Sequence record: MK524178.1
DNA length: 64,000 bases
Strand: one strand, 5' to 3'
Source: Escherichia phage PHB12
The notes beneath the pieces were generated by a model. The model saw nothing but the letters and a program-made list of their open reading frames with translations. It searched no databases and was not told the origin of the DNA. This document shows, in pieces, positions 31,447 to 45,900 of this stretch (position 1 is its first letter; each line of letters starts with the position of its first letter). Made by a program: the position numbers and the translations under genes.

Positions 31447-32622
31447 TTAGAAATATTTTTTGTATGAATTGATTACATTTTGGTCTACATCATTATCAAT
31501 TTGTGCGACAAGATAAGAACTGATTTCAACTTCCTGAGGAGCTGCTTGAACTAAATCAGAGTTCAGATATTCACGAATCCAAGGATACGGATGCTTGGTC
31601 GGAGCATCAGTGATTGGGCATGGCAAACCACACTGTTTCATACGAGACACAGTCAAGTAATCAACAAAAGCACACATACTCTGCGTATTGATACCTGGAC
31701 ATGTACCATCTTTAAAGAGGTGTGCAGCCCATTCCTTCTCTTGACTATTTACTTCCATAAAAATGTCAACTGCTTCTTGTTCACATTCTTTAGCAATTTG
31801 AACCCACTCATCACCATCAGTACCAGATTGAAGTTGACGGATAATGTACTGAGTACCCTTGAGGTGGAGTTGTTCGTCACGAGCAATGAACTTCATAATC
31901 TTTGCATTACCTTCCATAATTTCCATATTTTTATGGAAGTTGAAAGTACATGCAAATGATACGTAAAAACGAATAGCTTCTAAGGCGTTGATAACATGTA
32001 AACAGAGATAAAGAGACTTCATTAAATCACGCTTGGTGTTAAACATTATTTCTTCGTACATCTCAATATCATTCTGCTGGCATGAGCCTATTGAACACTC
32101 ATAATCTTCCTTAGCATTTTCCCAATGACGAGTCTTGACTAGAACATCATCGTAATATTTACCTATTGATTCAGCTCGTTTCATGATTGCTTCGTCTAAT
32201 ACAATCTCATCAAATACTTTGGATGGATCGGTATAAAGATTTCGCATAATATGAGTATACGAACGAGAGTGAATAGTTTCACTGAATGTCCATGTTGCAA
32301 CCCATGTATCTAATGAAGGGTCAGAAATCAGTGCCATAAGTACAGCAGATGGGGCCCTGCCTTGGATAGAATCCAATAATGATTGATACTTAAGATTGTT
32401 TGTAAAGATGTCCTGTTGGAACTGAGGAAGCTTATTGAACTGCGCAGAGTCCAACATCAAGTTTACCTCTTCAGGGCGCCAGAAAAATGACAAGGATTTT
32501 TCTATAAGTTCTTCAAAAACTTTATGACGCTGAATATCGTAACGTGCGAGACCAAGACCAGAACCAAAGAACATCGGTTCATTCAAAACATCGACTTGTT
32601 GTGTGTTAAAAACTGTACTCAT
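31447..32622 (-). CDS. nrdB: ribonucleotide reductase beta subunit (intron-less)
   Basis: 391 aa continuous ORF; di-iron RNR small-subunit motifs. Confidence 0.96.
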   Translation of the reverse strand: MSTVFNTQQVDVLNEPMFFGSGLGLARYDIQRHKVFEELIEKSLSFFWRPEEVNLMLDSAQFNKLPQFQQDIFTNNLKYQSLLDSIQGRAPSAVLMALISDPSLDTWVATWTFSETIHSRSYTHIMRNLYTDPSKVFDEIVLDEAIMKRAESIGKYYDDVLVKTRHWENAKEDYECSIGSCQQNDIEMYEEIMFNTKRDLMKSLYLCLHVINALEAIRFYVSFACTFNFHKNMEIMEGNAKIMKFIARDEQLHLKGTQYIIRQLQSGTDGDEWVQIAKECEQEAVDIFMEVNSQEKEWAAHLFKDGTCPGINTQSMCAFVDYLTVSRMKQCGLPCPITDAPTKHPYPWIREYLNSDLVQAAPQEVEISSYLVAQIDNDVDQNVINSYKKYF

Positions 32623-32675
32623 TATATTTTCTCACTTAGTTTAACTCATCCATGAGTAAATTATAATCAAAAGTC

Positions 32676-34931
32676 TTAAAGCTTACAAGCAGAACAATCT
32701 TCAGCTTTAGGTGTTTCTAATTCGTAGTCATCTGTACCTGACCCGTCGCGAGTGTTATGATAGTAGAGATTTTTTCCGCCAAAGTACCAGAAGTAAAGCA
32801 GATCGTCAAGCATTACTGACATTGGCACTTTACCTTTCTCAAATACTGCAGGGTCATAGTAAGTATTAGCAGAAGCAGATTGGCATACCCATTTCAACAT
32901 GATAGCAACTTGGGTCAAATAAGGTTTATTACCTTTCTTAGCAAGTTTCCACGCGTAGTCGTAAAGACCCATGTTATGTTCTATATTAGGAACAACCTGA
33001 CGGAAGTTGCCTTCTTTAGATTCTTTAATACTTACTGGGCCGCGTGGGGGCTCAATCCCGTTTGTAGAGTTTGATACTTGACTGCTTGACTCACAAGGCA
33101 TGAGTGCAGACAACGTTGAGTTACGAATTCCGTGTTCTTTGAGTTCAGCTCGAAGTTCTTCCCAGTCACAGACGTAGTTCGGGGCTGCAATTTGGTCAAT
33201 CTTTTTATTGTACCAGTCGATAGGTAATTCGCCTCTAGACCATTTAGTGTCTGAATAATACTCGCAACATCCTTTTTCTTTGGCGAGTTTGATTGAAGCT
33301 TTGATAAGGCCATATTGCAATCTCTCAAACAATTCATGAGTCAAATCGTTAGCGTCTTCATATGAAGCAAAGTTAGAAGCTAACCATGCAGCATAGTTCG
33401 TCACACCGACACCGAGATTTCGTCGCTTTTTAGCTTTTAAAGCTTCTGGAACCGGATAATCTTGATAGTCTAACAGGTTATCAAGTGCACGTACTTGTAC
33501 TTCAGCAAGTTCATTAATTTTATCTTGGTCTTGCCAATCAAATTTATCTAATACAAAAGCAGATAACGTGCATAAACCAATTTCAGCATCAGGACCATTC
33601 ACATCATTAGTTGGAATAGCGATTTCACAACATAAGTTACTCTGACGAATTGGAGCTTTTTCACGAATAAACGGAGTGTAGTTATTCGTGTTATCAACAA
33701 ACTGTGGATAAATTCGAGCAGTACCAGAACGTTCAGTCATGAACAATTCAAAGAGTTCTAGTGCTTTGATTCTTTTCTTTCTGATTGTTGGGTCTTTTTC
33801 AGCTTTCTCATAAAGCTCACGGAATTTATCTTGATCTTCAAAGAATGAGTAATATAGTTCGCCTGACATTTCGTGAGGGCTAAATAAAGTAATATAATCA
33901 TTTTTACCAAGGCGTTCCATCATAAGGTCATTAATCTGAATTCCGTAGTCCATATGTCGAATACGGTTTTCATCCACACCTTTGTTATTTTTCAGAACTA
34001 ATAGGTTCTCTACTTCTAAGTGCCACATCGGATAATACGCTGTAGCAGCACCACCACGAATACCGCCTTGAGAACAAGATTTTACTGCGGTTTGGAAATG
34101 TTTCCAGAATGGAATAACACCTGTATGTCGAACTTCACCCGTACCGATCTTAGAACCTTCTGCACGAAGCATACCAACGTTGATACCGATACCAGCTCGT
34201 TTAGAAATATATTCAATAATTGATGCTGAAGTTTTGTTAATAGATTTTAACGAATCACCGGCTTCAATAACTACACAACTAGAGAACTGGCGAGTTGGAG
34301 TACGAGCACCTGCCATAATTGGGGTTGGCAATGAAACTTGATGAGTAGAAACGGCATCATAAAAACGAATAATATGTTTCAAACGGTCATGAGTTTCGTC
34401 TTGGTGTAAGGCCATGCCAATAGCCATGATAGCAAACTGTGGAGTTTCATAAATCTTCCCAGTTGTTTTATCTTTAACTAGATATTTTTCTTTAAGCTGC
34501 ATAGCACCAGCATAAGTCAGGTCAAAGTCTCGTTCATGTTTAATCTGTGAATCTAGATAAATGATTTCTTCTGCCGAATATTGAGACAACAGCTCAGGGT
34601 CGTATTTGCCTTCATTAACACAGTAAGAAATATGGTCGATAAAAGCAGGCGGTTCAAACTGCCCATATACATCTTTACGAAGTGCAAACATTAGCCCTTT
34701 GGCAGCGACATACTGATAATCAGGTTCTTCGACAGAAATCAAGTTAGCTGCAACTTTAATACAAATCTTCTGAATATCTTTGGTGCTCATCCCGTCAACA
34801 AGATGGGTCTTAATTTCTTCGTACAATTCATATGGGTCAATTTGTGTTCCTTCACACTGCCAAGTTAAGACTTGAATAATTTTCTGTGCATCAAAATTTT
34901 GGGATACCCCACTGCTCTTAGTTACTTGCAT
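32676..34931 (-). CDS. nrdA: ribonucleotide reductase alpha subunit
   Basis: 751 aa; class Ia RNR large subunit; C-terminal CxxC tail. Confidence 0.96.
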   Translation of the reverse strand: MQVTKSSGVSQNFDAQKIIQVLTWQCEGTQIDPYELYEEIKTHLVDGMSTKDIQKICIKVAANLISVEEPDYQYVAAKGLMFALRKDVYGQFEPPAFIDHISYCVNEGKYDPELLSQYSAEEIIYLDSQIKHERDFDLTYAGAMQLKEKYLVKDKTTGKIYETPQFAIMAIGMALHQDETHDRLKHIIRFYDAVSTHQVSLPTPIMAGARTPTRQFSSCVVIEAGDSLKSINKTSASIIEYISKRAGIGINVGMLRAEGSKIGTGEVRHTGVIPFWKHFQTAVKSCSQGGIRGGAATAYYPMWHLEVENLLVLKNNKGVDENRIRHMDYGIQINDLMMERLGKNDYITLFSPHEMSGELYYSFFEDQDKFRELYEKAEKDPTIRKKRIKALELFELFMTERSGTARIYPQFVDNTNNYTPFIREKAPIRQSNLCCEIAIPTNDVNGPDAEIGLCTLSAFVLDKFDWQDQDKINELAEVQVRALDNLLDYQDYPVPEALKAKKRRNLGVGVTNYAAWLASNFASYEDANDLTHELFERLQYGLIKASIKLAKEKGCCEYYSDTKWSRGELPIDWYNKKIDQIAAPNYVCDWEELRAELKEHGIRNSTLSALMPCESSSQVSNSTNGIEPPRGPVSIKESKEGNFRQVVPNIEHNMGLYDYAWKLAKKGNKPYLTQVAIMLKWVCQSASANTYYDPAVFEKGKVPMSVMLDDLLYFWYFGGKNLYYHNTRDGSGTDDYELETPKAEDCSACKL

Positions 34932-35227
34932 ATGTCCTCTATATTAAATTCATCTTTAAAAAGTTTATTAACCACTAGAGCTATTATATCACCATGACAG
35001 GCTTTTGGTTTACATGTGCATCCTAATCGCATCCCACGTAAAGGTTCAAGATGAGCTTTTGTGATTTCTCCACTTCTAATTCTTTTAATAAAATCCTTTT
35101 TGAAAAGCTCAATAGCTTCTTCTCGAGAAGAGGCATCCTTGCCTACATAATTTCCCCAGAATGTGCCACGATGAATATTAACATCAAAATCTGATTTGTA
35201 TTTATTCACTACGCGGCATATTTTCAT
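34922..35227 (-). CDS. hypothetical protein (101 aa), nrdA.1 position
   Basis: ORF overlapping the nrdA start. Confidence 0.65.
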   Translation of the reverse strand: MKICRVVNKYKSDFDVNIHRGTFWGNYVGKDASSREEAIELFKKDFIKRIRSGEITKAHLEPLRGMRLGCTCKPKACHGDIIALVVNKLFKDEFNIEDICK

Positions 35228-35445
35228 GTTACGTCAACCTCAAACCAACAGTCATAAACATTATCCAAAAGATTATGCTTATTATATTCATACACCTTTG
35301 TAACAGAGAGAACTCTCTCTTCAAAGCCGTCAACATTAATTGTCTCAGTTTTAATAGGGAGCTCAAGAGGATTAGCATTATAAAGTTCAGCTAACACCTT
35401 TTTACTACCATGTCCTTTACGAACAATACGAATATTGATACCCAT
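35224..35445 (-). CDS. hypothetical protein (73 aa)
   Basis: ORF, 4-nt overlaps with neighbours. Confidence 0.5.
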   Translation of the reverse strand: MGINIRIVRKGHGSKKVLAELYNANPLELPIKTETINVDGFEERVLSVTKVYEYNKHNLLDNVYDCWFEVDVT

Positions 35446-35693
35446 TAGTTACGTTCCAATTCTTCGTATTCTTTAGGTGTCAAGACTGTGATATCGAAAT
35501 AAACCAACGGTTCTTTTTCTATACCGTAACCACCACAAAATTCACGATATTCATAAATTCGTTCATGTGAATAGCAAATGAATCGTTCACCTTTAACTGT
35601 GATTTCACTATTCGGTGAAGGGATATCCAGTTCGGTAGGATTTTTCATTTCAAAAATTGTGGTGCCATATGAATTAATAAAACGTAAAATCAT
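35445..35693 (-). CDS. hypothetical protein (82 aa)
   Basis: ORF immediately downstream of td. Confidence 0.5.
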   Translation of the reverse strand: MILRFINSYGTTIFEMKNPTELDIPSPNSEITVKGERFICYSHERIYEYREFCGGYGIEKEPLVYFDITVLTPKEYEELERN

Positions 35694-36554
35694 TTATACC
35701 GCCATTTTAGCTTTGATAGTTGGATGAGATTCGTAATTTTTAAGAACGAAATCAGAATGTGTCATCGTTCCAGTAACCCAGTCCATTTGGATTTTTGTAG
35801 GCCAATTCTCAAAATTACTAGGCCAATTAATTTCAAGAGAACATAACTCTTTAGGTTCACGACGAAGAACTTCTTTGCATTGCTCTACATGATTGCTGTA
35901 GATATGCGTATTGCCGCCTGAGAACACTAAATCACCTGGGATAAGGTTACACATCTTCGCTACAATATGCGTCAAGGCAGCGTACGAGGCGATGTTGAAC
36001 GGCAGGCCCAAGAAAACATCTACACTGCGTTGATACCATTGTAAATCAAGATGTCCATTACGCACATTAAATTGATAGAACATATGACAAGGAGGAAGAG
36101 CCATTTGGTCAATTTCGGCAGGGTTCCATGCAGAAACTATTTGTCGACGATCATTAGGAAGAGCTTTAATACGGTCGATAGTTTTGACCAATTGGTCTAC
36201 ACCACCAAAATCACGCCATTGCTTACCATAAATAGGACCAAGTTCGCCGCTATGATATCCAAGGTCTTTTGCCTGATTTTCGTAGTTATCGTCCCAAATA
36301 GTTTTACCTTGAATAAGACTACCATGAGTACGAATACGCAAATCATTAACATTGGTAGAACCAGACATGAACCATAATAGCTCTGCAATACAAGCTTTCC
36401 ATGCTAATTTCTTAGTTGTTACTGCAGGAAATCCTTTAGTAAGGTCCCATCGCAATTTAGTTCCGAATAGAGCAATAGTGCCGGTACCTGTACGGTCGTC
36501 TGTTTCGTAGCCATTTTCTAAGATATCTTTAATCAAATCTTGATATTGTTTCAT
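35694..36554 (-). CDS. td: thymidylate synthase (intron-less)
   Basis: 286 aa continuous ORF; active-site region ALPPCHMFYQF. Confidence 0.96.
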   Translation of the reverse strand: MKQYQDLIKDILENGYETDDRTGTGTIALFGTKLRWDLTKGFPAVTTKKLAWKACIAELLWFMSGSTNVNDLRIRTHGSLIQGKTIWDDNYENQAKDLGYHSGELGPIYGKQWRDFGGVDQLVKTIDRIKALPNDRRQIVSAWNPAEIDQMALPPCHMFYQFNVRNGHLDLQWYQRSVDVFLGLPFNIASYAALTHIVAKMCNLIPGDLVFSGGNTHIYSNHVEQCKEVLRREPKELCSLEINWPSNFENWPTKIQMDWVTGTMTHSDFVLKNYESHPTIKAKMAV

Positions 36555-38931: not shown

Positions 38932-39831
38932 TTATAGACCAGCTAACAGGTCATCGAGGTCGCCATCGTCAGAAGACGAGGAACTCATGAAGTCATCTTC
39001 AGTTTTTGCAGAACTAAAGGCTTCCATGTCTTTATCAAAATCGTCAAGGTCAGAAGCAACTTTATCTGCAACAGAAGCTGCTGCGGCTGCTGCACCACCA
39101 AGAGCGGCAGTACCAAGAACTTGATTAAATTTAGTATTCAATTCTTCAAACGATTTGAACTTATCTTTAGAAGTCATTTCAGAAAGGTCAACCATTTGTT
39201 CGAACAATTCTTTCTGGAAAGATTCATCATCAATGTTTGGAATCGCAGATTGATTCAGGAATTTAGATTCGTCGTAGTTACTAAAACCAGAAACCTGTTT
39301 AACTTTCAGCACAAAGTTAGCACCTTCCCATGGGCAAGTTACATCAACGGGAGTTTCACCCATTTCAGTATCGACTGCAATCATTGCATTGATTTTGTCC
39401 CAAATCTTTTTACCAAAACGGTATTTGAATACTTTACCTTCATTATCTGGAGCTTGTGGGTCTTTAACAACCAGGATATTAGCCCAATAAGAAGTTTTAC
39501 GTTTCAGTTGAGAATATTCTGTTTTGTTTGTATTGTACAGATCATTTTTACTAATGTACTGACATACCGGACAAGAGTCATAATCGCCGTGTGTAGATGA
39601 ACAGGTTTCAATATACCATTTACCGTTTTTCTTGAACCCGTGGTTAACAAGAATTGCAAACGGAAGTGCGTCATCTGTTTTTGCCGGCAGGAAACGAATT
39701 ACCGCTTGACCATTACCGGATGCATCGAGTTTCAGCTTCCATTCACCTTTATCTTCTGAAGAGAAACCTTTGTTACCATTCAGTTTAGCCATCTGAGCTG
39801 CGAGGTCTGCGGTACTTTTACGTTTAAACAT
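38932..39831 (-). CDS. 32: single-stranded DNA-binding protein gp32
   Basis: 299 aa; zinc-binding region ([14 protein letters not shown]), acidic C-terminus; matches T4 gp32. Confidence 0.96.
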
Positions 39832-39859
39832 TTTATTTGCCTTTATTTAGATTATTAAT

Positions 39860-39905
39860 TAAATTTTACAGTTGGTTGCTACGACACTTATACCTCGTAG
39901 CTGGT
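39860..39905 (-). promoter_or_regulatory. gene 32 translational operator (leader hairpin/pseudoknot plus AU-rich tract)
   Basis: mRNA-sense GCTACGA-10 nt-TCGTAGC hairpin followed by an unstructured AU-rich leader before the ATG. Confidence 0.6.
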
Positions 39906-39919: not shown

Positions 39920-39948
39920 AAGTAATTTTAACACACAAGAAATAAAGC

Positions 39949-40602
39949 TTAATACTTACATGATTTGATTGTTTCTATGAACAATTTCTTAGCAGCATTT
40001 CCATCGATTTGAAGTATTTTTCGATATGCCTTTAATTTGGTAGAATAATTTTGCCAGACTAAGTTATCGGTGAGTTCGTCGTGCTTATCTATAATATTCA
40101 AAAATGAGTCCAACAATAAGAAAGTCTCAAATGAAATTATATTGCTTTGTAGCAATTTGAATATGTAGCTCGACTGAACGTTGTTATTATAATCAAATAT
40201 CTCTTGAAGCGCACTAACTTCAACTTTCTTACTGAAATAGTAGATGTTACGTACGTCTTCAGCAAACGTCTCCTTGGCTTGTTTGAGACGTCCAATATAT
40301 TCCCTATAGAAAACTAATGCATCAGCGTCTGATATCTCACCAATCCATGCGTCTTGGTTAGCAACTAAGTTGCTTATGAATATCAAGGTGAGTTCCTTCA
40401 ATTTATATTTCTCTGCTAGTTTTTCAAAGAAATATTTATCTCGGCGTTTTTGATACGCATTATCCGAAACACGCATGCACCAGTTATATTTGATTACGTC
40501 ATACCGACCACCAAAGTGGTTTTTGCACATCAAGTATAGTTTATATACTGATTTACCGTTAATATAACGTTCTCCGTCAGGAGGCATGCGTATTTTAATC
40601 AT
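39949..40602 (-). CDS. 59: helicase loader gp59
   Basis: 217 aa; near-identical to T4 gp59 over its length. Confidence 0.95.
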   Translation of the reverse strand: MIKIRMPPDGERYINGKSVYKLYLMCKNHFGGRYDVIKYNWCMRVSDNAYQKRRDKYFFEKLAEKYKLKELTLIFISNLVANQDAWIGEISDADALVFYREYIGRLKQAKETFAEDVRNIYYFSKKVEVSALQEIFDYNNNVQSSYIFKLLQSNIISFETFLLLDSFLNIIDKHDELTDNLVWQNYSTKLKAYRKILQIDGNAAKKLFIETIKSCKY

Positions 40603-41278
40603 AGTTCCATCCAGGCCATTTTGAAGATTTAAGTCTATACGTAACTAGAGATGCAGAAATATTAAAAACATCCGAAACTTCTGTGCATGATGAGTATTTT
40701 ATACCATCAATAATTATAGGTTTTTGTTTTTTAATAGTTCTTTCTTTAGAATGCGGCTTTGAATTTGCTATTCTAAGAGCTTCTTTGGTTGAATCAGGCA
40801 TCGGCTTATTCGTTTTTCGCCCTTTTCGGACTTTACTCAAAGCTAATTTATGAGCTTCAGATAGTTTCTTACCCTTATTAGGGGATGGTATTTTTCTTTC
40901 TAATCTGGTTTTAGATACTTTAGCCTTAGTCTCTTCAGATCTAGGTTTACCTAATTTAGAAAGTGAAATAGCCCTTTTAGCTTCATCACTTTGTTTTTTA
41001 CCAGGGCCACCTTTACCACCGGGAACTAAGTTATAAGTATCAGTTCGCAAAACAAAATCTTCATTAACCAATTCTGCTTCTTTTTTATAGGCGTCCTTGT
41101 CATTATCATATTCATAAAGAATTTCGGTATAAAAATTTTTTAGTCCATATTTAGCTTTGGCCGCTAATATAGCGCGGCCTGATCCAATATACCAATCTTT
41201 CTCTTTATGTTTTTTGTGTACGCCTATATAAATTTTACCATTTATTTTATTGGTAGTTTTATACACAACGTATTTCAT
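40595..41278 (-). CDS. GIY-YIG homing endonuclease (Seg/I-TevI-like), free-standing
   Basis: 227 aa; GIY-YIG module (VYKTTNKINGKIYIGV...YIGSG), NUMOD3-like repeats, I-TevI-like C-terminal DNA-binding end (ISASLVTYRLKSSKW). Confidence 0.85.
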   Translation of the reverse strand: MKYVVYKTTNKINGKIYIGVHKKHKEKDWYIGSGRAILAAKAKYGLKNFYTEILYEYDNDKDAYKKEAELVNEDFVLRTDTYNLVPGGKGGPGKKQSDEAKRAISLSKLGKPRSEETKAKVSKTRLERKIPSPNKGKKLSEAHKLALSKVRKGRKTNKPMPDSTKEALRIANSKPHSKERTIKKQKPIIIDGIKYSSCTEVSDVFNISASLVTYRLKSSKWPGWNYD

Positions 41279-41613
41279 AATAAGAAATCTAACGTATTAG
41301 TTTTTTCACCACGAGCAACTGATGGGCGAAGCATGTTTTCGTCAATTGCTTCGCTTGTAATTTTTTCAACAATTCCTGTAGGAATAAATTTAGCAAATTG
41401 TGTTTCTGGAATAGAATTTTCTTCCAAGAAAGCAGTTGTTGCTTCTAAATAAGACATACCAAATTGTTCAACCATGGATTCGATAATGAATCCATTTTCT
41501 TGTCGGTCAAGCAATTTAGCGATATCATCTTTATCGTGTTTTACTGCTAATTCTTGTTCAGATAAACCGGCCTCATCAACCGGTTTAATATCACTTAGTG
41601 AAAACTGTGTCAT
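41275..41613 (-). CDS. 33: late transcription accessory protein gp33
   Basis: 112 aa; matches T4 gp33. Confidence 0.93.
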   Translation of the reverse strand: MTQFSLSDIKPVDEAGLSEQELAVKHDKDDIAKLLDRQENGFIIESMVEQFGMSYLEATTAFLEENSIPETQFAKFIPTGIVEKITSEAIDENMLRPSVARGEKTNTLDFLL

Positions 41614-41860
41614 AAAGCTCGACTACCTCTTCGTTTTCAGCTTCAAATTGGTCACGAGCGTCTTTATGATAAAGAGCTAACAAACGATTAAACATTTTTC
41701 CATCGACGCCAAGCTCTTCTTTAGCACGAGTACGAATGTCTTTAATCAGTTCATTATAACCAGAAATTTTAAGTTTGTTATCGGAAGCTTCCTTGACTAG
41801 TTTAGCCAGTTCTTCACCATGCACATCTTGATTAAATTCAACTGCTTCTTTCTTAGCCAT
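41591..41860 (-). CDS. dsbA: double-stranded DNA-binding protein DsbA
   Basis: 89 aa from internal ATG with SD GAGGT; the track start is an upstream extension. Confidence 0.85.
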   Translation of the reverse strand: MAKKEAVEFNQDVHGEELAKLVKEASDNKLKISGYNELIKDIRTRAKEELGVDGKMFNRLLALYHKDARDQFEAENEEVVELYDTVFTK

Positions 41861-41867
41861 GTTTACC

Positions 41868-42785
41868 TCAGAATTCATTAATTACACTTGTTAATTTAGA
41901 AAGACCAGATTTTACAAAGTATGAATAAATCTTGCCTTTAGGTTGTGGTTGATATGAGTTATAATACTCTATAATGGTTGAAGCAATATTATCAGGGATA
42001 TAATCAAAATCAATGAGAACCAAATTTTCTTGATACCGTTTATATTCTTCTGCACTTAATAATACTTCAGCTTGAGAACGGTCATTGGCAATTGCTTCAA
42101 TAATCGTTGTTTTCATGCTTGGAGTTCGTTCGCCTTCAACTCGAGTAAACCAGAAATCACCACGAACTCGAACAGACGCAACACCGTCTTTACGGTCGCC
42201 TTTAAGAATTTTAGTCATGCAATCAATTTCGGCAGAACCATTCTTAATTTTAACCCATTTTTTCTGTGGTGGCGACCACTGTTTAACGTTAGGATATTTG
42301 TGTAATTGTGTAAAGTCACCATCTGATGCAACAATACACACCTTATGACCAGCTAATGACAAATATTTAGTTAATACACCGATATGGTCATCCGCTTCGT
42401 ACTTGTCAATATCCATTACAACGTATGGCATGTATTTCTTAATCTCATCAACAACTTGACGGAGTGCAGTAAAATATCCTTCCCAATCCCACTTTGAAGC
42501 TTCACGATCAGTTTTACGATTTTTCTTGTAATAGTAAGCAAAGTCACGACGCCAATAACCTGAAGTAGCATTATCCATACACAATACAAATTTTGTATAG
42601 CCTTGCTTACGGAACATCACTACGTTTTTACGAATTGAATTCAAGATTACATGGCGAACCATCGGAACGGTAATTTTATCACCATCTTCAAAGTTGTTTA
42701 ATGCAGCTGCCAATGCAATGTTACTAAAGTCAGCAAGCGCAATACCTTCTTTGTAATCTTCATCCAACATCATTTCTAAATCCAT
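41868..42785 (-). CDS. rnh: RNase H / 5'-3' exonuclease
   Basis: 305 aa; FEN-family motifs; matches T4 RNase H. Confidence 0.95.
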   Translation of the reverse strand: MDLEMMLDEDYKEGIALADFSNIALAAALNNFEDGDKITVPMVRHVILNSIRKNVVMFRKQGYTKFVLCMDNATSGYWRRDFAYYYKKNRKTDREASKWDWEGYFTALRQVVDEIKKYMPYVVMDIDKYEADDHIGVLTKYLSLAGHKVCIVASDGDFTQLHKYPNVKQWSPPQKKWVKIKNGSAEIDCMTKILKGDRKDGVASVRVRGDFWFTRVEGERTPSMKTTIIEAIANDRSQAEVLLSAEEYKRYQENLVLIDFDYIPDNIASTIIEYYNSYQPQPKGKIYSYFVKSGLSKLTSVINEF

Positions 42786-42863
42786 ATGAACCTCTTGTTC
42801 AGTTAGTCAACTTAGACCATAGTAACATACTAGTTCGAAAGCGTAAATAGTCTTTTACTCATT

Positions 42864-42871
42864 TATAAATA
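42864..42871 (+). promoter_or_regulatory. late promoter (TATAAATA) for gene 34
   Basis: Exact match 35 nt upstream of the gene 34 ATG. Confidence 0.7.
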
Positions 42872-42905
42872 GTAAAATAGAACACATAATGATAAGAGGA
42901 CTACC

Positions 42906-45900
42906 ATGGTTGACATCAAACGTAAGTTCAGGGCCGAAGATGGTCTTGACGCAGGCGGTGATAAGATAGTTAACGTTGCGCTTGCTGACCGCACAGTTGG
43001 CACCGATGGCGTGAACGTTGACTTTTTGGTGCAAGAAAACACCGTACAGAATTATGACGAGACGCGCGCGTATACAAAAGATTTTATTGTTCTTTATGAT
43101 AATCGTTTTTATCAAGCTTTAAGCGATATTCCAGCTCCGGCAGGCCCTTTCTCTTTGGCTAAATGGAAGGCAACTCGTACAGATGCAGAATGGATTACAG
43201 TTCAAGGCGGAGATTTCCAATTATCAGTAGGTAACTCTATTGCGGTTGATACTTCAGCTGGCACTGATATTAATTTCACTTTGCCTCAAAATCCTTTAGA
43301 TGGCGATACAGTTATTTTGTCTGATATTGGCGGTAGAGTAGGCTATGTAAAAGTTCAAATTACTGCAGCGGCTCAAAGTATTGTAAACTTTAGAGGACAA
43401 CAGGTTCGTTCAGTTTTAATGACGCACCCAAAATCTAAAATGGTCTTCATTTTTAGCAACCGCCTATGGCAAATGTATGTTTCTGATTACGAACGTAATG
43501 CAGTCACAGTAACTCCTGCTGCGCCATATCAAGCGCAACCTAATGATTTTATCATTCGACGTTTTACATCAGCCGCTCCTATTAATATTACATTGCCTCG
43601 TAATGCTAATAATGGCGATATTATTAATTTAGTGGATTTGGACAAATTAAACCCATTATATCACACAATTGTCAAAACTTACGATGATACAACTTCTATA
43701 CGAGAAGCTGGTGTTCATGTAGCAGAAGGACGTAATACTGCGGAAGCATTCTTTGTTTATGATTCTGCCAATAGTTTATGGCGTGTTTGGGAAGGTGACC
43801 AGAAATCTCGTTTACGTATAGTTCGTAATGATACTGATTTACGCCCTAATGAAGAAGTTCTTGTTTTTGGAACTAATAATGATACAATCTCGACGGTAAA
43901 TCTTACTTTGCCTACAGATATTTTGTCTGGCGATACTGTTAAAATATCGTTGAATTATATGCGTAAAGGGCAAACTGTAAAAATTAAAGCTGCTGAAGGC
44001 GATACAATTGCTAGCAGTATTTCTTTATTACAGTTCCCAAAACGTTCGGAGTATCCACCTGATGCACAATGGGTTTCTGTTAGTGAGCTAGAATTTAATG
44101 GTGATACTTCGTATGTACCTGTACTTGAGTTAGCTTATATAGAAGATTATTCATCTGAAACAAAATATTGGGTAGTTCAACAAAACACCGTAACCGTCGA
44201 ACGAGTCGATGCATCGAGCAATACCACTCGAGCTCGTTTAGGTGTTATTGCTCTTGCTTCTCAAGCGCAAGCAAATGTCGATTTAGAAAATGCTCCTGGT
44301 AAAGAACTGGCTATTACTCCGGAAACATTAGCAAATCGTACAGCAACTGAAACTCGTCGTGGTATTGCTCGTATTGCAACAACTGCACAAGTTAACCAGA
44401 ATACCGATTTTGCATTCCAAGACGACTTGATTATTTCTCCTAAGAAATTGAACGAACGTACAGCAACTGAAACCCGTAGAGGTGTTGCTGAAGTTGCAAC
44501 TCAGGCTGAAACTAATGCTGGAACAGATGACACCACTATTATTACTCCTAAGAAATTGGATGGCCGTCAAGGTTCTGAAGTTTTATCTGGTATTGTAAAA
44601 TACACATCTACGACTGGTACTACAGCGGCTACTGTTCGTGGTAATGCTGGGACTAACGTTTATAACAAAGCCGTAGATAATTTAACTATTTCTCCAAAGG
44701 CTCTTGACCAGTATAAAGCTACCCCTACTCAGCAGGGTGCAGTAATTCTTGCTATTGAAAGTGAAGTTATCGCTGGCGAATCACAAGCTGGTTGGGCTAA
44801 TGCTGTAGTGACCCCTGAAACTCTGCATAAGAAAACTTCTACTGATGGACGTATTGGTTTAATTGAAATTGCTACGCAAGCAGAAACTAACACTGGAACT
44901 GATTATACTAGAGCAGTAACGCCTAAGACGTTAAATGATAGGAAAGCTACGGAAGGATTATCTGGCATAGCCGAAATTGCTACGCAAGTTGAATTTGATA
45001 CTGGAACTGATGATACTCGTATCTCGACTCCACTGAAAATTAAAACTCATTTTGATTCTTCTGACCGTACCAGTGTTAATTCTGATTCCGGACTTATTGA
45101 AGAAGGAACCTTGTGGAACCATTATACTCTTGATATTTCTAAAGCAAATGAAACACAACGTGGTACACTTCGCGTAGCTACTCAGGCAGAATCTAATGCC
45201 GGAACTTTAGATGATGTTCTTATTACTCCTAAAAAACTTTTAGGGACTAAGTCCACTGAAACGTCTGAAGGCGTGATTAAGGTTGCTACTCAGGCTGAAA
45301 CTGTAACAGGAACTTCTGCTAATACTGCTGTATCACCTAAGAATTTAAAATGGATTGTCCAGAATGAACCAACATGGGCTGCTACTACGGCAATTCGTGG
45401 ATTCGTTAAAACTTCATCTGGTTCTATTACATTCGTTGGTGACGATACTCAAGGTAGTACCCAGGACCTGAATCTTTACGAGAAAAATAGTTATGCTATT
45501 TCTCCATATGAATTAAACCGTGTACTTGCTAACTATTTGCCATTGAAAGCTAAAGCCGTAGATAGTAATCTGTTAGATGGTCTAGATTCTCTTCAGTTCA
45601 TCCGTAGAGACATCGACCAGACGGTTAATGGTTCTTTAAGTCTTACTAAACAGACCAACCTGAGTGCTCCTTTAGTATCTACAAGCACTGCTTCTTTTGG
45701 TTCCGAAGCATCTGTTACTCGTAGATTAACTCTTAATGACTCTAGTGGTTCCGAAATAGTTTTCACTAAAGGAACTCAATCTCTTAGTAATAAAGAGAAT
45801 TTCGTTGTTAGAGCATGGGGTAATAGCGCTACAGATGGTGCCCGTGATACAGTATTTGAAGCGGGTGACGAAACCGGATACCATTTCTATTCTCAGCGCG

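Follow-up and report, generated by a model that had tools for sequence, protein, structure and literature searches.

A Seg-type homing endonuclease gene at the gene 33/59 junction of T4-like phages and a linked divergent patch at the 5' end of gene 59

In the T4 record, genes 33 and 59 overlap directly in an ATGA, with nothing in between. What, then, occupies the same junction in Escherichia phage PHB12, how long has it been there, and what has it done to the genes on either side? We analyzed 64,000 nucleotides (nt) of this Mosigvirus (RB69-like) genome (sequence record MK524178.1), a stretch referred to below as the window. In it, an open reading frame (ORF) of 227 amino acids (aa) with an ATG start, evident from the ORF list and the sequence, lies on the minus strand at 40595..41278 between gene 33, encoding the late-transcription co-activator, and gene 59, encoding the helicase loader; we call the gene seg and its product Seg. 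A first-pass annotation of the window had proposed a recently inserted, free-standing GIY-YIG homing endonuclease, and had suggested that nearby alleles (genes 32, 59, and 33) might be converted along with it. The explanation that best joins the evidence, to which we assign a probability of roughly 65%, is that Seg is a Seg-group homing endonuclease encoded by a promoter-less cassette at the 33/59 junction, that it would cut the 5' part of gene 59, and that it is an old resident of this site.

By sequence and structural model, the ORF is a free-standing GIY-YIG homing endonuclease of the Seg/I-TevI group, with predicted nuclease activity. It matched NCBIfam TIGR01453 (“group I intron endonuclease,” the I-TevI-like GIY-YIG family) over essentially its full length (aa 4 to 224 of 227; 75 bits against a cut-off of 56.05) as well as PHROG 314, “homing endonuclease” (E = 1e-55). 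The protein was 100% identical to one from Shigella phage phi25-307 labelled homing endonuclease, a phage to which a 1.8-kb stretch at the locus was 99.4% identical. Three parts were distinguished. The N-terminal catalytic domain (aa 1 to 92; 41003..41278, minus strand) is a SegE-type variant of GIY-YIG: it was 45% identical to T4 SegE over 91 aa (aa 1 to 91), the two proteins sharing the variant motifs VY...YIG-H, D-Y-GSG, KYG, E, YN, and GG, and it kept all 12 residues found to be invariant across 31 homologues (Y6, Y17, G19, H21, Y30, G32, G34, K43, G45, E67, Y82, and N83), among them the Tyr residues of both signature motifs (Y6 within VVY and Y17 within Y17-I-G19), the Glu that binds metal (E67), and the structural Asn (within Y82-N83); the GG motif was likewise kept. 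The NUMOD3-like basic repeats named by the first-pass annotation were recognizable as about four repeats within a basic helical linker (aa 93 to 182; 40733..41002, minus strand), but their assignment to Pfam NUMOD3 (PF07460) was only just at threshold (aa 93 to 122; 20.8 bits against a cut-off of 20.4), and no stretch reached it individually; precomputed PF07460 matches were present in many Seg homologues, and the shorter orthologues had one repeat fewer. The C-terminal part (aa 183 to 226; 40601..40732, minus strand) is an I-TevI-type DNA-binding domain (Pfam I-TevI_DNA-bd, PF20987; 42.6 bits against a cut-off of 27, E = 5.7e-11), and the helix-turn-helix of I-TevI is clearly homologous to it (ISASLVTYRLKSSKW against ISSGLVTYRVKSDKW).

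Structural comparison pointed the same way. A profile alignment to I-TevI (hhalign, probability 97%) spanned both domains, and an AlphaFold2 model of Seg (mean predicted local distance difference test score, 86; about 90 to 95 in the catalytic domain) had an N-terminal GIY-YIG-like layout of beta-beta-alpha-beta-alpha-alpha, a linker that began with low-confidence residues 91 to 93 and continued as helices (98 to 108, 115 to 128, 141 to 151, and 162 to 173), and a C-terminal beta-hairpin plus helix-turn-helix. Foldseek returned I-TevI structures for both ends: 1MK0 was the top PDB match of the catalytic domain (probability 1.00; target template modelling score, 0.68), and 1I3J, also matched by sequence, was that of the C-terminal domain (probability 1.00). 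As regards domain ends within the family, orthologues at L041:2501-3196 and L043:2501-3100 (also L042:2501-3094) were 88% identical over aligned residues and differed in their C-terminal DNA-binding ends, of which there were two types, the I-TevI-like “...ISNGLVTHRLKS” and “...TTTVRDRIKS”; the short forms (197 to 204 aa) also lacked one NUMOD3-like repeat. These sequences suggest an exchange of DNA-binding modules inside one locus-specific Seg lineage.

The comparison with insert-free relatives proposed by the first-pass annotation yielded an exact empty site in Mosigvirus, and likewise in Dhakavirus and Winklervirus. In the Mosigvirus NRG-P0074 the junction reads ...TTATTATGATTAAAATACGC..., one ATGA being common to genes 33 and 59, and insert-free records aligned to the window in two pieces, 1125 base pairs (bp) spanning what is 1801 bp in the window. 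The window thus carries 676 extra bases exactly at the 33/59 ATGA (40599..41274, minus strand), flanked on both sides by TATGA, which leaves their exact placement uncertain by up to 5 nt. Both overlaps that had been read from the sequence were seen: gene 33 ends in ...GAT TTC TTA TTA TGA, with the seg ATG inside the 4-nt ATGA at 41275..41278, and seg ends in ...TGG AAC TAT GAT TAA, its last codon and stop lying within the 8-nt ATGATTAA (40595..40602, minus strand) where gene 59 starts with ATG ATT AAA, so that the seg stop codon comes from gene 59 codons 2 and 3. The ATGATTAA-type overlap recurred in Dhakavirus and in contigs L041, L043, and L044, and the Winklervirus overlap was 26 nt. In Dhakavirus the flanking repeat is ATGATTAA, and Seg there begins MIK-, like gp59. 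Such overlaps had been taken as the hallmark of a recently inserted selfish element. That interpretation did not hold, because insert-free phages already overlap genes 33 and 59 by ATGA; on the sequence evidence, the seg overlaps are the native 33/59 coupling signal doubled at both ends rather than scars of a recent event.

The two flanking genes are intact by Pfam, gp59 (39949..40602, minus strand) matching T4_Gp59_N and T4_Gp59_C (E = 1e-49 and 1e-44) and gp33 (41275..41613, minus strand) matching Trans_coact (E = 3.5e-26). No Rfam family matched between 39800 and 42000, hence no group I intron, and together with the intact flanking genes this ruled out an intron-encoded endonuclease. The late promoter motif TATAAATA was absent from 39920 to 42863 on either strand, leaving seg with no late promoter of its own, and sigma-70-like matches (21, against about 12.8 in shuffled sequences) gave no specific support for another. 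A hairpin that might mask the seg AUG was also considered and rejected: the stem at the 3' end of gene 33 occurred in carriers and non-carriers alike, and its energy was unremarkable against shuffles (z = -0.7). As judged from its sequence context, seg is therefore a promoter-less cassette, as are segC, segF, and segG, described as such in the Edgell review (PMC2988022). Sitting exactly in the 33/59 ATGA overlap, a promoter-less cassette would ride the rnh-dsbA-33-59 transcript. No Shine-Dalgarno sequence was evident by eye at the seg start; translation of seg would therefore probably be coupled to that of gene 33, with the coupling then passed on to gene 59.

If Seg acts as a homing endonuclease, which of the nearby alleles travel with it? 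When 9 carriers were aligned with 8 non-carriers across about 7.8 kb, none of the variation in gene 33, dsbA, rnh, and gene 32 tracked seg, and neither gene 32 nor the side of gene 33 showed fixed differences. Seg-linked differences clustered instead at 40498..40576 (minus strand), corresponding to gene 59 nt 27 to 105. Of the alleles that the first-pass annotation had suggested might be converted along with seg, those at the 5' end of gene 59 were linked to it, and those of genes 33 and 32 were not. At the core of this patch (gene 59 codons 28 to 31; 40511..40521, minus strand), carriers had AAC CAY TTT GGT (N-H-F-G), against CAA CAT TTT AAT (Q-H-F-N) in most non-carriers; T4 has Q-H-M-N there, with residues 28 and 31 as in the common non-carriers. 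Public records were then compared by means of a chimeric query joining the common non-carrier patch to the 3' end of seg. All 28 carrier records matched the query at only 93.8 to 95.6% identity. The non-carrier version of the patch occurred in none of them, but 88 non-carrier records matched it at 99% identity or more. Gene 59 nt 27, 48, and 54 varied among carriers and the core codons did not; because sites near the junction vary while the core stays constant, the sequences point to the core itself as what matters in the patch. As a separate observation on this region, gene 59 in L019:4001-4100 (IMGVR_UViG_2700989062) seems frameshifted near nt 55 to 60, inside the seg-covarying 5' region, with gp59 similarity only from residue 28; this may be an assembly error.

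A block of the same kind was found in each of the three genera compared, when each carrier was set against its closest non-carrier over 1154 nt per comparison. In Mosigvirus, the window differed from the seg-less NBG1 at 11 positions, 9 of them in gene 59 nt 27 to 92; in Winklervirus, an LC53-like carrier differed from Gravdalen at 23, of which 22 fell in gene 59 nt 28 to 78; and in Dhakavirus, 14 of the 29 differences between IME540 and LHE83 were in gene 59 nt 15 to 93. Random placement never matched this clustering in 20000 trials per comparison, and the last 500 nt on the gene 33 side held only 0 to 4 differences between carriers and their closest non-carriers. The Winklervirus block included AGT/TCT serine and TTA/CTG leucine switches, and because of these changes of codon class it resembles diverged sequence brought in from elsewhere more than recent point mutation. 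A single donor shared across genera was ruled out, the three carrier patches being unlike each other. Overall, gene 59 nt 15 to 105 was linked to seg in three genera, as an association among sequenced isolates.

How old is the arrangement? Among public phage records, seg was present in 28 and absent in about 126 from Mosigvirus, with flanks 98 to 99% identical; depositors mostly label the gene homing endonuclease or Seg-like already. The 33/59 junction also held seg in Dhakavirus (IME540, AnYang, and LQ5, three phages in 4 records, against about 45 seg-less), in Winklervirus (LC53, CHI14, CBH8, and Kc304, but not Gravdalen, Vettismorki, X20, or Virsaitis27), and in three metagenomic T4-like contigs. 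The Winklervirus pattern has been noticed before, LC53 gp244 being reported from LC53 and Kc304 and not from Virsaitis27 (PMC10132071), and our literature search for any enzyme named or tested at this junction returned nothing beyond that remark on presence and absence. Between genera, Seg proteins were 51 to 61% identical, a divergence similar to that of the accompanying rnh, dsbA, and gp33, and this comparison gave no sign of recent between-genus transfer. Within Mosigvirus, the synonymous divergence (dS) of seg alleles was 0.07 to 0.24 with a nonsynonymous-to-synonymous ratio (dN/dS) of 0.05 to 0.11, the ORF was intact in 9/9 aligned carriers, and its GC content (32.6%) matched that of neighbouring genes (34%). 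On these allele and orthologue divergences and the matching GC, we rejected a recent insertion. Judged from the sequences, purifying selection acts on the Seg protein, and Seg is an old resident of the 33/59 junction in several T4-like genera, with seg loss, and probably re-invasion, within each genus. One carrier departed from the intact state: in Escherichia phage AV116 (L051:796-1480), a C inserted at seg nt 307 causes a frameshift at codon 103 that splits the catalytic from the DNA-binding part of a copy otherwise equal to the AV109 allele, reflecting either real decay or a sequencing error.

Free-standing endonucleases are described as cutting away from their own gene and co-converting the sequence that flanks it (Edgell review, PMC2988022). 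By analogy with SegE, SegF, and SegG, Seg would, in a mixed infection, cut gene 59 of a seg-less genome within its 5' part, roughly at nt 80 to 110 (~40495 to 40525), and the break would be repaired from the seg-carrying genome, so that not only seg but all sequence from the cut up to the insertion point is copied. Such forced copying would leave a sharply bounded block running from the insertion point to about nt 80 to 105. The gene 59 patch would then be a forced co-conversion tract that contains, or ends at, the predicted cleavage site; the carrier's own version of the stretch would be a variant resistant to Seg, and the non-carriers with a carrier-type patch would be either products of seg loss via the short direct repeats or recombinants.

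Several points weigh against this reading. The gene 59 patch could have hitch-hiked as a haplotype and not be the target. About 16 or more non-carrier records have the carrier-type patch, and the changed positions within it differ among the three genera. In Winklervirus and Dhakavirus, only two phages with seg and two without were compared per genus. The cleavage sites known for Seg enzymes are hundreds of bp away from the seg genes (PMC2988022), farther than proposed here, and our literature search found no biochemical or genetic test of Seg or any orthologue. As to the enzyme itself, Pfam GIY-YIG models fell below cut-off on the Seg sequence alone (SegE_GIY-YIG, 22 bits against 25), and residue R27 of I-TevI had no aligned counterpart in Seg in profile alignments, the helix segment that carries it being an insertion in I-TevI. 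T4 SegE likewise has no aligned counterpart to R27, and because SegE, listed as active among Seg enzymes (PMC2988022), shows the same arrangement, we read the absence from the alignments as a trait of the subfamily and not a lesion of the window copy. Nor did the Seg alignment reveal any catalytic-motif defect relative to the experimentally active SegE: the inactivating substitutions that, according to the first-pass annotation, would speak against a working nuclease were not found at the sequence level.

The carrier-type patches in seg-less genomes bear as well on a different history, in which seg was ancestral at the junction and has since been lost, repeatedly and precisely, via its short end repeats, with no ongoing homing, the patch merely marking two old haplotype lineages. 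Such patches are what would be expected after loss, the direct repeats are in place (TATGA in Mosigvirus, ATGATTAA in Dhakavirus), Seg has diverged between genera much as rnh, dsbA, and gp33 have, which argues against recent transfer, and a frameshifted copy exists in the carrier AV116. We nevertheless consider this history rather unlikely: it leaves unexplained why, in three genera, haplotypes are near-identical except for a block of ~80 nt from the insertion point, the common non-carrier patch never occurs in carriers, and purifying selection implies a maintained function. Long residence under purifying selection in several genera would also be seen if Seg had been co-opted for the benefit of the phage, whether in excluding competitors or satellites or in regulation. 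I-TevI represses its own gene, a regulatory precedent. The chance of co-option nonetheless appears slim, given that seg is a minority allele (28 of about 154 Mosigvirus records, 3 against about 45 in Dhakavirus, and 4 of 8 Winklervirus phages), unlike a generally beneficial gene, and even with the precedent of marker exclusion by Seg enzymes (PMC2988022). Slimmer yet is the prospect that the nuclease is inactive or irrelevant and that the ORF persists as a link in a coupling chain from gene 33 through seg to gene 59, such that most deletions would harm expression of the essential gene 59. The promoter-less arrangement, with ATGA upstream and ATGATTAA downstream, the lack of a late promoter, and the inclusion of the gene 59 start and its upstream ribosome-binding context within seg would all suit such a chain. 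However, selection covers the whole protein, catalytic invariants included, rather than just its 3' end; phages survive clean removal of seg, as the naturally occurring exact empty junctions of about 126 genomes show; and AV116 could be isolated as a phage despite its frameshift at codon 103, so that full-length translation of Seg is evidently not essential for gene 59 expression.

A bolder version of the homing endonuclease reading, which we regard as quite unlikely, is that an ancient, locus-faithful Seg has targeted the start of gene 59 throughout a long arms race and possibly sets gp59 dosage too, the latter given the place of seg in the translational chain between genes 33 and 59. If so, each genus would show its own sharply bounded, recoded block in gene 59, with amino acid changes at codons 10 to 31, travelling with seg, and if gp59 dosage were also set in this way, a core replication protein would have both its sequence and its expression shaped by a selfish gene. 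The general picture is left unchanged by Seg; what is added is one more Seg-type endonuclease, as yet uncharacterised, encoded where T4 has no gene between 33 and 59, together with a testable prediction of its cut site. The natural pairs of carriers and non-carriers in three genera offer a convenient system for intronless homing and the length of co-conversion tracts, and have a bearing on the local mosaic blocks that homing endonucleases make in therapeutic T4-like phages.

As far as sequence comparison can tell, Seg is the orthologue of no named T4 Seg. SegE, whose catalytic domain it resembles and which is also free-standing, lies beside uvsW, has another target, and has a C terminus without an I-TevI-type DNA-binding match in the alignment. 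The best full-length T4 match was SegD, encoded between genes 23 and 24 (35.5% over about 220 aa, E = 1e-38, with the same domain order), and the CHI14 orthologue of Seg is annotated “segD”; however, SegD occupies another locus and is only about one third identical, and its activity is listed as not determined (PMC2988022). SegH, encoded near nrdG in RB3-type phages, was about 34% identical over 98% of the length by tblastn (gene annotated SegH in phage F2), an identity too low for orthology and again at a different locus, and the Shf125875 record labels its gene product “SegH-like.” I-TevI, from the T4 td intron, has the same three-part architecture and both folds, with an overall identity of 27%; it is encoded inside a group I intron, whereas Seg is free-standing, without intron RNA and without the zinc-finger segment.

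T4 SegG is encoded one junction farther on, between genes 59 and 32; as the first-pass annotation states, T4 has no homing endonuclease between genes 33 and 59. SegG cuts gene 32 and co-converts at a distance; the neighbouring junction, the promoter-less logic, and the co-conversion model are alike, and the junction itself and the presumed target gene differ. BLASTP of Seg against T4 SegG detected no similarity, which ruled out Seg as a SegG orthologue moved by one gene, and the 59-32 spacer of the window contained neither a SegG-like ORF nor a tblastn match to one. SegG-like ORFs do lie between genes 59 and 32 in IME540 (L004:3845-4462), AnYang (L050:2146-2501), and LHE83 (L048:1449-1822); the IME540 protein, of 205 aa, aligns along T4 SegG, and in IME540 and AnYang gene 59 has a homing endonuclease gene on either side, the SegG-like one and the 33/59 seg. 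Queries with T4 SegD, SegE, SegG, I-TevI, MobE, and I-TevIII found no other GIY-YIG or HNH gene in the window, Seg being the sole endonuclease of that query set there. At 31447-36554, long unbroken ORFs of 391, 751, and 286 aa, presumed from the position of the T4 cluster to be nrdB, nrdA, and td, were without homologues of I-TevI, I-TevIII, or MobE.

Farther from seg, Pfam names gp32 (38932-39831), DsbA, and RNase H among the neighbours, and two features of this region segregate on their own. Gene 32 (39120-39865) exists in Mosigvirus as two deeply diverged allele classes (dS ~0.45 to 0.48, about 30 amino acid differences) that segregate independently of seg, with the border of the mosaic block near the 59-32 spacer. 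Over the rnh-gene 34 spacer and the start of gene 34 (42816-43000), the window shares a dense haplotype with L032 (Shf125875) and L037 (phage SF), and all other genomes share an alternative one; this block, too, is unlinked to seg. Lastly, the carrier PaulHMueller (L028; MZ501098.1, Bas45) is entered under Tequatrovirus in its taxonomy line, yet its locus is 98.5% identical to those of Mosigvirus genomes, which is probably a matter of record labelling; its bas45 locus tags and Basel origin suggest that it comes from the BASEL phage collection.

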